Source of the DNA: Escherichia coli
GTDB taxonomy: Bacteria; Pseudomonadota; Gammaproteobacteria; Enterobacterales; Enterobacteriaceae
Reading direction: 5' to 3' (one strand)
NCBI RefSeq assembly: GCF_045037415.1
Contig: NZ_CP173438.1
DNA length: 64,000 bases
The translations under genes and the position numbers were made by a program. Shown in pieces: positions 12,619 through 14,762 of the stretch (positions are counted from its first letter, which is position 1; each line of letters starts with the position of its first letter). The notes below the pieces were generated by a model that ran no database searches, was not told the origin of the DNA, and was given only the letters and a program-made list of their open reading frames with translations.

Positions 12619-13995
12619 CTATGATATCCCTGAAATGTCCTCTTCAAGCTCTTTTACTGATTTCGCAATTTTAAATTTAAATTTTCTCTCTATTTCACTA
12701 TTGCTAAGTTTTTTTTCATTCTCTTTCCCTATCCACATAGAAACAATTTCTCGTTTCTGAGATATATGTAGATTGTCAAAGTTAGGTATGTATTTAAAAG
12801 TCTCCGCTCTACCCCTGCGGAGTTCATAGAAAGTTTTAATCAAAGACTTTGGTTTTATTTCTGATGAAAGGCCGAATCGGCGGATAAGATTATTGATCGT
12901 ATGATTAACAGCTCGAAGTTGAGCTGTTGACGTTATTTGTGAGAAGTACGATACCCATCCCAATCGTTTACCTTCAAACACACATCCCGTAATTCTAAGA
13001 TTTAGTTTCCACTGACAATATGCAACAGCTCGTTCTTTATCGTGCTTATTTTTAGCTTGTAGTAGAGCGTGTCTATATGCAGTAAAAATTTTTGCTAAGG
13101 ATGACTCAAATCTAAGAATGCTCTCATGTTTTATCAATAATTCTCGATTTTTTATGTGGTAGCCCAAAAAGTTGAAACTTTCATCCAAGCTGCCTACTTT
13201 GGATTTTGAGTTCTCTTCATTTAATGGATGTGGGTTTAAATTTAATGATTGAAGCTTATCAATGATATGAGATGCAATTTTTGTTGCTTGATCTTTTTGC
13301 GTTAAAATAAGAATGTCATCAACGTATCGCATGTACCATATGTCATGCATTTTATTGATTTCATTGTCGAAATCAGATAGTGATATTTCAGCTAAAATGT
13401 TTGATATTGCTAACCCCTGAGGTACTCCTCTGGTATTATTAGGGACACCTTTGCTTCCTGTACTTCCACTTACAGTAGGCACGATTAATGATGATGTTAT
13501 TAACTGCCTAATTTCTTTTTTTCTAATCTTATTTTTTATTGCATTAAATATCAATTTATGTTCAATTGAAGGATAGAAACTTTTGAGATCTATTTTTGCA
13601 TATTCAGCATATAGATCGCTGTTTAATGCATTTTTCAATAAGTCAATTACTGTATGTGGTAGTTTTAATCTGGAGTTAGGATATATTTCTGTAAGGCATT
13701 CACAGAGAGCCCTAAGGGTAATTCTGTCCCTGGCAGTTGGTATGGAAATCTGTCTGGGGATAGAGTTAGCCCCTTTAGATATTAATTTTTCTTTATATGC
13801 TGTAAATTTATAATTTCCACAATTAACCTTTTCAAAAATAAAAGTGATCTCATTCTTTATTGTTAAATCAAGTTTTGATGGACGAATCCGATCTATGCCA
13901 ATCGCTCCTGATTCTTTGATTTTTTCATTGTATACTTTTAGAAGGTTTTTTTTCGAGAATGACTTTTTAAAAACTCTGCTTGCATTCATAGTCAA
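12619..13995 (-). CDS. Reverse transcriptase (unclassified; retron/Abi/UG-like defence-type RT)
   Basis: 458 aa; RT motifs in order: GIDRI (motif 1), RQISIPTARDRITLRAL (motif 2), DLKSFYPSI (A), GVPQGLAISNILAEI (B), YVDD (C), FLGY (E). Start is TTG at 13995 or ATG at 13989; overlaps the upstream membrane-protein gene. Confidence 0.85.
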   Translation of the reverse strand: MTMNASRVFKKSFSKKNLLKVYNEKIKESGAIGIDRIRPSKLDLTIKNEITFIFEKVNCGNYKFTAYKEKLISKGANSIPRQISIPTARDRITLRALCECLTEIYPNSRLKLPHTVIDLLKNALNSDLYAEYAKIDLKSFYPSIEHKLIFNAIKNKIRKKEIRQLITSSLIVPTVSGSTGSKGVPNNTRGVPQGLAISNILAEISLSDFDNEINKMHDIWYMRYVDDILILTQKDQATKIASHIIDKLQSLNLNPHPLNEENSKSKVGSLDESFNFLGYHIKNRELLIKHESILRFESSLAKIFTAYRHALLQAKNKHDKERAVAYCQWKLNLRITGCVFEGKRLGWVSYFSQITSTAQLRAVNHTINNLIRRFGLSSEIKPKSLIKTFYELRRGRAETFKYIPNFDNLHISQKREIVSMWIGKENEKKLSNSEIERKFKFKIAKSVKELEEDISGIS

Positions 13996-14671
13996 TCCAA
14001 AGACATATTAATGGGAGGATATAAAGGCCGACAGTAATAAACATTCGACGTAATATCCATAATTTAACAATTATTTTTTCTTTTTGTGTGGGGAGTCTAG
14101 TCGTAAGTCCAACTTGAGTTACCCTTGAAACTTTATCATCTATGTCACGATGATTCTCAACCTCATTGAGCAAATTAAAATATTTTTCTTTCTGTTCAAG
14201 AGTTAACTGTTGGCCGTTATTAATATCAAAATAGAGTCTCTGTAGTGCAATATAATTCCTTCTCATGGCTATTGCTCGACCACGATAATCTAGGTTAGAT
14301 ACGATCAGAGAAATACCCAGTAGAGCCACTGAAAGTATTGCCGCAACGATATCTGTATTATCTCCTAGAAATTTTGGAAATCGTAACGTTATAATTGAAA
14401 GTACCGCACTCAATATAGCATACCAAACGAGGATAAATTGAGAGTGTTTTTCAAGCCATTCTAGTCTATGGTGCGCTTGAATACGGGCTTTATATGTAAA
14501 CCAAATATTTTCATGCATAAAATATCCTTTTAAAAAGCGGAAGGGGCAGGATATATTGGAACCGTTGAACATCCTGCTCGGCAGGATCAGTGAGCATAAG
14601 CTCAACAGTAAAATATTACTGTTCATTATCAGAGCCGCCCTTGCATACGCAAGAGGAAAAAACTGCCCCAT
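13967..14671 (-). CDS. Small membrane protein with 2-3 predicted TM helices (candidate effector; SLATT-like architecture not verified)
   Basis: Hydrophobic segments FILVWYAILSAVLSIITL, IVAAILSVALLGISLIVS and MFITVGLYILPLICLWI around a charged helical region. Alternative start at ATG 14518 with AAGGA 7 nt upstream would give about 183 aa. Confidence 0.6.
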   Translation of the reverse strand: MGQFFPLAYARAALIMNSNILLLSLCSLILPSRMFNGSNISCPFRFLKGYFMHENIWFTYKARIQAHHRLEWLEKHSQFILVWYAILSAVLSIITLRFPKFLGDNTDIVAAILSVALLGISLIVSNLDYRGRAIAMRRNYIALQRLYFDINNGQQLTLEQKEKYFNLLNEVENHRDIDDKVSRVTQVGLTTRLPTQKEKIIVKLWILRRMFITVGLYILPLICLWIDYECKQSF

Positions 14672-14680
14672 CCTTTTGAA

Positions 14681-14709
14681 TTATTACAATTTAATGATCT
14701 TAAAGTCAA
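14681..14709 (-). promoter_or_regulatory. Putative sigma70 promoter for the membrane-protein/RT operon
   Basis: Minus strand reads TTGACT, 17-bp spacer, TAATAA, a few nt upstream of the ATG at 14671. Confidence 0.35.
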
Positions 14710-14762
14710 TACAAGTGAATTGTGTCCAGAGATGATGAACTAAATCACTCGTCAGCAAATTC

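Follow-up and report, generated by a model that had tools for sequence, protein, structure and literature searches.

The stretch analyzed here is a window of 64,000 nucleotides (nt) of Escherichia coli contig NZ_CP173438.1 (assembly GCF_045037415.1; all coordinates are window positions), in which a reverse transcriptase (RT) cassette lies as cargo at the tail-fiber end of a lambdoid prophage. We are highly confident that the cassette represents an intact anti-phage system of the DRT10 (UG17) family, of the same type as Eco3DRT10, the system of E. coli 703491 with RT OKX54664 (Tang et al., 2025, PMC12632851; Ramirez et al., 2026, bioRxiv 10.64898/2026.06.29.735271). An open reading frame (ORF) list and translation place two long ORFs on the minus strand between 12619 and 14710, a small membrane protein followed by an RT, as the initial annotation of the stretch had described. 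The G+C content of the cassette is 30–37%, compared to about 50% in the DNA on either side. According to RefSeq, the gene order is J, lom, stf, a macro-domain gene, tfa, RT, SLATT, a dinI-like pseudogene, yecD, and aspS, which bears out the placement between tfa and the host junction. The RT and SLATT genes occupy the strand opposite to the genes of the tail-fiber side, and the host genes yecD and aspS adjoin the prophage end that bears the cassette.

Read from a TTG codon, the RT ORF extends over 12619–13995 and encodes 458 amino acids (aa), the length first reported; from the ATG at 13989, the start preferred by both RefSeq and the Eco3DRT10 authors, it encodes 456 aa, which we adopt. As the SLATT ORF ends at 13967, the two genes overlap by 23 nt counted from the ATG or 29 nt from the TTG, in line with the earlier estimate of about 25–30 bp. 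The PADLOC profile RT_UG17 matches residues 3–458 over positions 1–429 of 429 (E = 8.4e-159); the runner-up family is Drt3a (E = 1.6e-37), and the Drt9 and Drt2 profiles reach only 1e-18 to 1e-24. Pfam RVT_1 covers residues 79–281 (E = 1.6e-20), leaving about 175 aa at the C-terminus rather than the roughly 190 originally given. The YVDD active site is at residues 222–225 (Table 1), and mutation of RT catalytic residues abolishes defense in E. coli DRT10 homologs (PMC12632851). The protein ends in Ser456; in Eco3DRT10 the priming serine is S456 (S458 in the NCBI record), and S456A abolishes both cDNA synthesis and defense, so that the same residue would be expected to prime DNA synthesis in the window allele.

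The membrane protein matches the PADLOC profile RTasSLATT (RT-associated SLATT; E = 2.4e-57) as well as SLATT_5 of NCBIfam (132 bits, cut-off 60) and Pfam (E = 6e-28). Three hydrophobic segments, at about residues 25–48, 54–78, and 149–177 by hydropathy, agree with the two or three transmembrane helices predicted earlier. The start chosen at that time does not hold: all SLATT profile alignments begin at residue 51–53 of the 234-aa ORF that starts at 14671, and RefSeq and Eco3 both use the ATG at 14518 (MH(E/D)NIWFTYK), therefore the ORF is over-extended by 51 codons and the real protein has 183 aa. An AAGGA Shine-Dalgarno sequence lies 7 nt upstream of this ATG. The 51 extra codons fall on a conserved, structured noncoding RNA (ncRNA), with ATG 14671 corresponding to nt 3–5 of its basal stem; mechanical ORF calling thus turns the ncRNA into a false N-terminal extension of SLATT.

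This ncRNA is an essential third part of what had been presented as a two-gene system. The 150 nt upstream of SLATT fold into a basal stem around four stem-loops, with a minimum free energy of −53.9 kcal/mol (z = −4.38) that none of 200 shuffled sequences equaled. The alignment comprised 11 sequences. Besides the window allele it drew on E. coli (three further alleles), on IMG/VR (two prophage contigs), and on five more distant loci, with RT identities of only about 60%; these five, all from Pseudomonas or Stutzerimonas, were the whole yield of a scan of genome contigs, a small number but enough for covariation. The consensus fold has 31 pairs in five helices (98.5% of cells pair), and 9 of the 31 show compensatory double changes, with at least one in each helix. 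None of 500 shuffles reached the covariation score, and sliding the 3′ partners lowered pairing to about 50%. A covariance model found a single match in the window (14681–14529, minus strand, 153.7 bits) and one directly upstream of SLATT in each related locus containing that DNA. Two of 17 loci matching a viral-contig DNA pattern (L032 and L045) gave no match to the RNA model and were discarded as chance. The stretch is unannotated in all 187 complete E. coli genomes that carry the cassette. Likewise, an Rfam search (E ≤ 1) over 12000–15500 found no family for the ncRNA, its sole match being IS009 in tfa, from which we conclude that the DRT10 ncRNA is absent from Rfam 15.

The ncRNA boundaries in Table 1 were transferred from the Eco3DRT10 numbering, which is based on RNA immunoprecipitation sequencing (nt 1 = 14673, nt 137 = 14537); the transfer puts U43/G44, A (nt 107–110), G111, and C116 (in A′) on matching bases. 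Ending 7 nt before nt 1 is a putative sigma-70-type promoter that matches the consensus at 10 of 12 positions and includes an extended −10 TG. Four E. coli alleles have it without change, and the Pseudomonas loci have −10-like elements (TGTAGAAT/TGTAAGAT) at equal distance. Transcription in the window presumably starts from this promoter, and the ncRNA of the UG17-A homolog is known to be transcribed independently (bioRxiv 10.64898/2026.04.29.721553).

Table 1. Features of the DRT10 cassette and the basis on which each was assigned (SL, stem-loop). Ranges are window positions.
Feature	Position	Strand	Details and basis
UG17/DRT10 reverse transcriptase	12619..13989	-	456 aa + stop; PADLOC RT_UG17, Pfam RVT_1, RefSeq WP_029701056.1
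Codon of C-terminal Ser456	12622..12624	-	...EEDISGIS*; predicted protein-priming residue; translation
Catalytic YVDD	13315..13326	-	residues 222-225; translation
SLATT_5-family effector	13967..14518	-	183 aa; RTasSLATT and SLATT_5 profiles, RefSeq WP_000545005.1, hydropathy, start context
DRT10 ncRNA	14537..14673	-	137 nt; fold, covariation, covariance model, Eco3 numbering
SL1 (basal stem)	14673-14663 with 14549-14539	-	
SL2	14655-14638	-	
Loop A	~14635-14624	-	U43/G44 at 14631/14630
SL3	14623-14604	-	
SL4	14603-14592	-	
SL5	14587-14571	-	
Loop B (template loop)	14570-14550	-	
Template A-B-A′ in Loop B	14555..14567	-	A = CAA(C) 14567-14564; B = GGUUC 14563-14559; A′ = CAA(U) 14558-14555
Putative sigma-70-type promoter of ncRNA	14680..14709	-	TTGACT, 18-nt spacer with TG, AATAAT; consensus scan

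The template loop of the window reads CAACGGUUC followed by CAAU, conforming to the A-B-A′ rule. It aligns position for position with nt 107–119 of Eco3DRT10, CAAUGAUUC followed by CAAU, the differences being U110C and A112G. The Eco3 template was identified from the published cDNA motif together with E. coli genomes whose RT is identical over the 397 tabulated Eco3 residues, as that of E. coli MS20654 is. Eco3DRT10 makes (GAATCATTG)n from CAAUGAUUC and then the realignment copy CAAU (PMC12632851). In the window, the first three bases of A and A′ match and the fourth would form a dG:rU wobble at realignment. The Eco3DRT10 literature reports that 3-nt homology suffices, that fourth-base mutations are tolerated (those in A alter the product), and that the B segment is free to vary; because of this tolerance, the predicted product of the window allele is a protein-primed single-stranded DNA (ssDNA) of tandem 5′-GAACCGTTG-3′ repeats.

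Both template types occur in nature. The Eco3 type is found in E. coli MS20654 and FDAARGOS_536, and the window type (CAACGG) in E. coli AR437 and in a more divergent enterobacterial homolog (IMG/VR loci L030, L033, and L039), while Pseudomonas homologs have an extended template, UCAACGGUAC followed by UCAA (UCAA-CGGUAC-UCAA). When the 187 positive E. coli genomes were searched with a 50-nt query running from SL5 to the 3′ end, 73 were identical, 80 had one mismatch, and 34 had three. The one-mismatch class includes AR437, with its window-type template, and three mismatches are the Eco3-type pattern; reading the split through AR437, the window-type template is probably the commoner E. coli allele (about 153 of 187 genomes). 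AR437 combines this template with an Eco3-type SLATT (179/183 residues), which means that template and SLATT alleles do not co-vary.

All the sequence features that define DRT10 are thus present: a UG17-clade RT, an overlapping SLATT_5 gene, an upstream structured ncRNA, and an A-B-A′ template, as well as YxDD and the C-terminal Ser456, the last two judged by their presence in the sequence. At that level it is clear what each of the three parts is, that the RNA structure covaries, and that YVDD, S456, and A-B-A′ have been retained. The window RT shares 376 of the 397 residues given in the Eco3 paper's table with OKX54664 (~95%), and its SLATT 164 of 183 residues with that of Eco3DRT10 (~90%); the window protein accessions were not found in the parts of that paper's supplementary tables available to us. 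UG17+SLATT was predicted to be a defense system in 2022 (PMC9226505), and the name DRT10 followed experimental proof in 2025 (PMC12632851), with more work in 2026. RT- and SLATT-dependent phage defense has been reported for E. coli UG17+SLATT operons, one of them about 95% identical to that in the window, and dependence on RT, SLATT, and ncRNA alike for three E. coli homologs and for Escherichia sp. E3659 (PMC12632851; bioRxiv 10.64898/2026.04.29.721553). DRT10, a small structured RNA with a SLATT membrane protein and a telomerase-like RT, is therefore an already described system. The initial annotation rightly proposed that this prophage cargo encodes an anti-phage system built on an RT and a membrane effector, as the full-length UG17 and RT-associated SLATT matches attest, and considered that no named family could be assigned from sequence alone; PADLOC profile searches place both RT and partner in UG17/DRT10, so the novelty it implied is not upheld.

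Several points weigh against reading the locus as an active Eco3-type system. The window template deviates from the tested Eco3 template at two positions (U110C and A112G), and U110C cuts the perfect A-A′ homology from 4 to 3 nt. That the window allele is active is something we infer from its sequence, and its ncRNA ends are presumed to coincide with those of the homolog from which they were carried over. The mode of SLATT activation and the formation of a pore are likewise presumed, two published homologs disagree on whether cDNA rises or falls on infection, and the supporting papers are preprints.

By analogy with these homologs, a dedicated promoter would drive transcription of the 137-nt ncRNA, whose fold, a basal stem bearing four stem-loops and two single-stranded loops, would be bound by two RT monomers. 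The RT at Loop B would prime DNA from the hydroxyl of its own C-terminal Ser456, copy the 9-nt template CAACGGUUC, release, and re-anneal the 3′ end (..TTG) on the downstream CAA(U); this telomerase-like cycling would yield kilobase-long ssDNA, (GAACCGTTG)n, covalently attached to the RT. The RT at Loop A would give only a short abortive product. For homologs, a 2:1 RT:ncRNA complex has been shown, with processive repeat addition from Ser456 at Loop B and a product of about 10 nt at Loop A. The DNA would be made constitutively, and host exonuclease I (ExoI, SbcB) and phage proteins resembling single-stranded DNA-binding protein (SSB) would shift its amount or form during infection. In E3659, toxicity is held in check by ExoI, and activation requires a phage SSB-like protein (bioRxiv 10.64898/2026.04.29.721553), and UG17 makes sbcB essential in one E. 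coli strain. The change in DNA would then be read out by the three-helix SLATT, which would be required for defense and would probably permeabilize the membrane, resulting in abortive infection; SLATT is presumed to be a membrane pore gated by cDNA. The earlier proposal that the RT senses infection is not what has been found for DRT10, in which the RT-ncRNA complex makes repeat DNA constitutively and the threshold for activation depends on SbcB and a phage SSB-like protein.

Among alternative explanations, the one that survives best is that the locus is DRT10 by descent but decayed or silent, for instance because the U110C/A112G template no longer supports repeat addition or because the cassette is not expressed, in which case it would be a passenger remnant. 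The frameshift in the neighboring dinI-like gene is a sign of decay at this end of the prophage, the 2.8-kb region is interrupted by an IS5-family insertion in two genomes, and the perfect A-A′ homology is 3 nt, not 4. On the other hand, neither ORF is truncated, YVDD and S456 are retained, and the promoter and all five helices are preserved. Moreover, the CAACGG template recurs in the divergent enterobacterial loci and, in its extended form, in Pseudomonas, the window allele appears to be in the majority in E. coli, and Eco3 tolerates both 3-nt homology and fourth-base changes. Decay or silence is, on balance, unlikely.

An Ec48-type retron, in which an RT and a two-transmembrane (2TM) effector would guard a host protein by means of multicopy single-stranded DNA (msDNA) made from an msr-msd RNA, would account for the pairing of RT and transmembrane effector, and there are weak PADLOC matches to “2TM effector” (E = 3.6e-5) and retron_St85_RT (62.9 bits). 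The latter score compares with a cut-off of 235, however, and with E = 8e-159 for UG17. The ncRNA, located upstream of the effector, has the five-helix architecture of DRT10, a search of 11000–16200 found no suitable inverted repeats of the a1/a2 kind that flank msr-msd, the catalytic motif is YVDD, and Rfam returned no retron msr family at E ≤ 1, all of which leaves the retron reading a negligible chance. Just as improbable is a mobile retroelement remnant (a group II intron RT/maturase) or a diversity-generating retroelement with no role in defense: NCBIfam group_II_RT_mat (TIGR04416) aligns over residues 16–374, and group II intron RTs are the nearest in sequence among solved structures, but TIGR04416 scores 139.5 bits vs. 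a cut-off of 300, the maturase domain GIIM is not significant (E = 0.13), Rfam over 12000–15500 detected no intron RNA, no direct repeats of at least 25 nt suggestive of a template and variable repeat pair were found in 11000–16200, and the RT stays linked to SLATT and the ncRNA in different genera. Both readings are in our view already refuted by these comparisons, in agreement with the initial annotation, which had set the RT apart from retrons, group II introns, and diversity-generating retroelements and had noted no maturase or endonuclease features; a Pfam search of the RT found no endonuclease domain. A sequence search of the PDB with the RT returned no DRT10 structure, the best matches being group II intron RTs and “retron-type” RT chains (E ~1e-13). 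The repeat search in 11000–16200 gave only a single weak inverted pair (25 nt, arms separated by 1.7 kb), judged to be chance. DRT3 (UG3+UG8; Drt3a, Drt3b, and an ncRNA) was also considered and excluded, with Drt3a at E = 1.6e-37 or weaker vs. 8e-159 for UG17; since only one RT ORF lies between tfa and yecD, the locus is not DRT3.

Of 5426 complete E. coli genomes, 187 (~3%), O25b:H4-ST131 strains among them, carry the DRT10 cassette, at 95–100% identity and always on the chromosome. A megablast search of the cassette against GenBank phage genomes found no match, so that all its occurrences so far are in prophages and IMG/VR prophage contigs. The prophages that carry it are integrated at yecD, as in the window, or at prfC, and the cassette lies between the tail-fiber genes and the dinI-like gene; E. 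coli MS20654 has the same dinI-like/SLATT/RT arrangement, with its prophage end beside prfC. In NZ_CP196261.1 and NZ_CM190148.1, an IS5-family element (ISEc68 / ISKpn26) interrupts the otherwise identical 2.8-kb region, which may represent natural inactivation of the system. In many IMG/VR prophage contigs (L010–L012, L016, L017, L019, L028, and L029), the sequence stops at the RT start or within SLATT, about 530 nt further upstream, which means that boundaries set automatically for prophages often split the cassette and lose the ncRNA.

The interval between tail fiber and dinI (12507–14760 in the window; compared with L047, L048, and L049) is nearly empty in the MMC-J-0078 prophage, also at the yecD site, and in the O157:H7 prophage Z1768 at ssrA it holds the type III secretion system effectors espM2 and espW. 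Because its content differs in this way (empty, espM2/espW, or DRT10), we consider it a genuine variable cargo slot. On its tail-fiber side, between stf (7988–11014) and tfa, lies a gene for a 300-aa macro-domain protein (11011–11913, plus strand), its start overlapping the stop of stf. The protein matches PHROG 2613, a group of unknown function, and its C-terminus has H-x-H repeats resembling those at the C-terminus of stf; it could have an ADP-ribose-related function tied to the tail-fiber module. The IS009 match noted above is full length (218 bits, 12265–12463, plus strand) and sits wholly within the coding sequence of tfa; at this site the “RNA family” thus coincides with a conserved stretch that encodes protein.

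On the other side of the cassette, the dinI-like gene (14764–14983, minus strand, ATG at 14981) is frameshifted in the window and a RefSeq pseudogene in an identical genome, and it is intact in prfC-site prophages bearing the same cassette. Two LexA-box-like sites on the minus strand, TACTGTATACAAACACAGT (15015–14997) and CACTGTTTATCCATACAGT (15043–15025), overlap the dinI-like promoter TTGACA...AAAAAT (15047–15018), about 320 nt upstream of the ncRNA and on the same strand; a further perfect match to the LexA-box pattern, TACTGTATAAAACCACAGT, lies at 37331–37349 (plus strand). No terminator-like site was detected between the dinI-like promoter and the ncRNA. SOS-driven read-through from this promoter into the cassette is possible, in which case prophage induction or DNA damage could raise ncRNA, SLATT, and RT levels. 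Taken jointly, SOS wiring of the cassette and a common natural allele that makes GAACCGTTG, unlike the laboratory model, form a proposal we advance only tentatively, with the odds clearly against it. If the difference in repeat were confirmed, it would, given template and SLATT alleles that assort independently, argue against SLATT reading the repeat sequence.

DRT10 is a minimal, protein-primed, telomerase-like enzyme for immunity, a discovery that belongs to earlier work. This locus adds only a little to it, namely an Eco3-type system as prophage cargo in the variable tail fiber-dinI slot, together with a probably commonest natural template that is unlike the one studied and could serve as a ready-made natural test of the A-B-A′ rule.

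The closest known system is Eco3DRT10, which shares with the window the order ncRNA, SLATT, RT, with overlapping SLATT and RT genes; an RT of 456 aa with YVDD, ending in ...DISGIS with S456; the same misannotated TTG start, giving a two-residue N-terminal extension (MTM...); and a 137-nt ncRNA with five stem-loops, U43/G44 in Loop A, and a 9-nt Loop B template followed by CAAU. It differs in its repeat, GAATCATTG vs. the predicted GAACCGTTG, in a few substitutions in SL2 and the SL5 loop, and at 19 positions in SLATT. UG17-A of Escherichia sp. E3659 (Sanchez-Nieto et al., 2026, bioRxiv 10.64898/2026.04.29.721553) shares family and gene order by its description; upstream of SLATT it has an ncRNA that is transcribed on its own, its cDNA consists of tandem repeats, and all three parts are required. 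However, its ncRNA is 143 nt long and drawn with six stem-loops, its repeats are 7 nt, and SbcB control and the SSB-like trigger Bas52_0087 were shown in E3659, not in the Eco3 lineage.

More distant are DRT9 (UG28) and DRT2 (UG2), the other Class 2 UG systems, which likewise combine an RT with a structured ncRNA containing a short internal template and carry out repetitive DNA synthesis. DRT9 has protein priming in common with DRT10, and its ncRNA reportedly folds in a similar way, but it is a hexamer that primes from tyrosine and copies a poly-U template into poly-dA, whereas DRT2 produces a concatenated gene via rolling-circle copying. Retron Ec48 resembles DRT10 in joining reverse-transcribed DNA to a transmembrane effector with presumed abortive infection, and differs in RT clade, in its RNA (msr-msd), and in priming from the 2′-OH of a branching G. 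Finally, telomerase (TERT + TER) also achieves repeat-addition processivity with a short RNA template beside a realignment sequence, and SL5, the stem-loop immediately 5′ of the DRT10 template loop, has been proposed to set the template boundary. In contrast to telomerase, DRT10 is protein-primed, extends no chromosome ends, and is far smaller (456 aa); its RT binds RNA 2:1, and its role is immunity with a membrane effector. An evolutionary link between the two is a claim made by the DRT10 authors.

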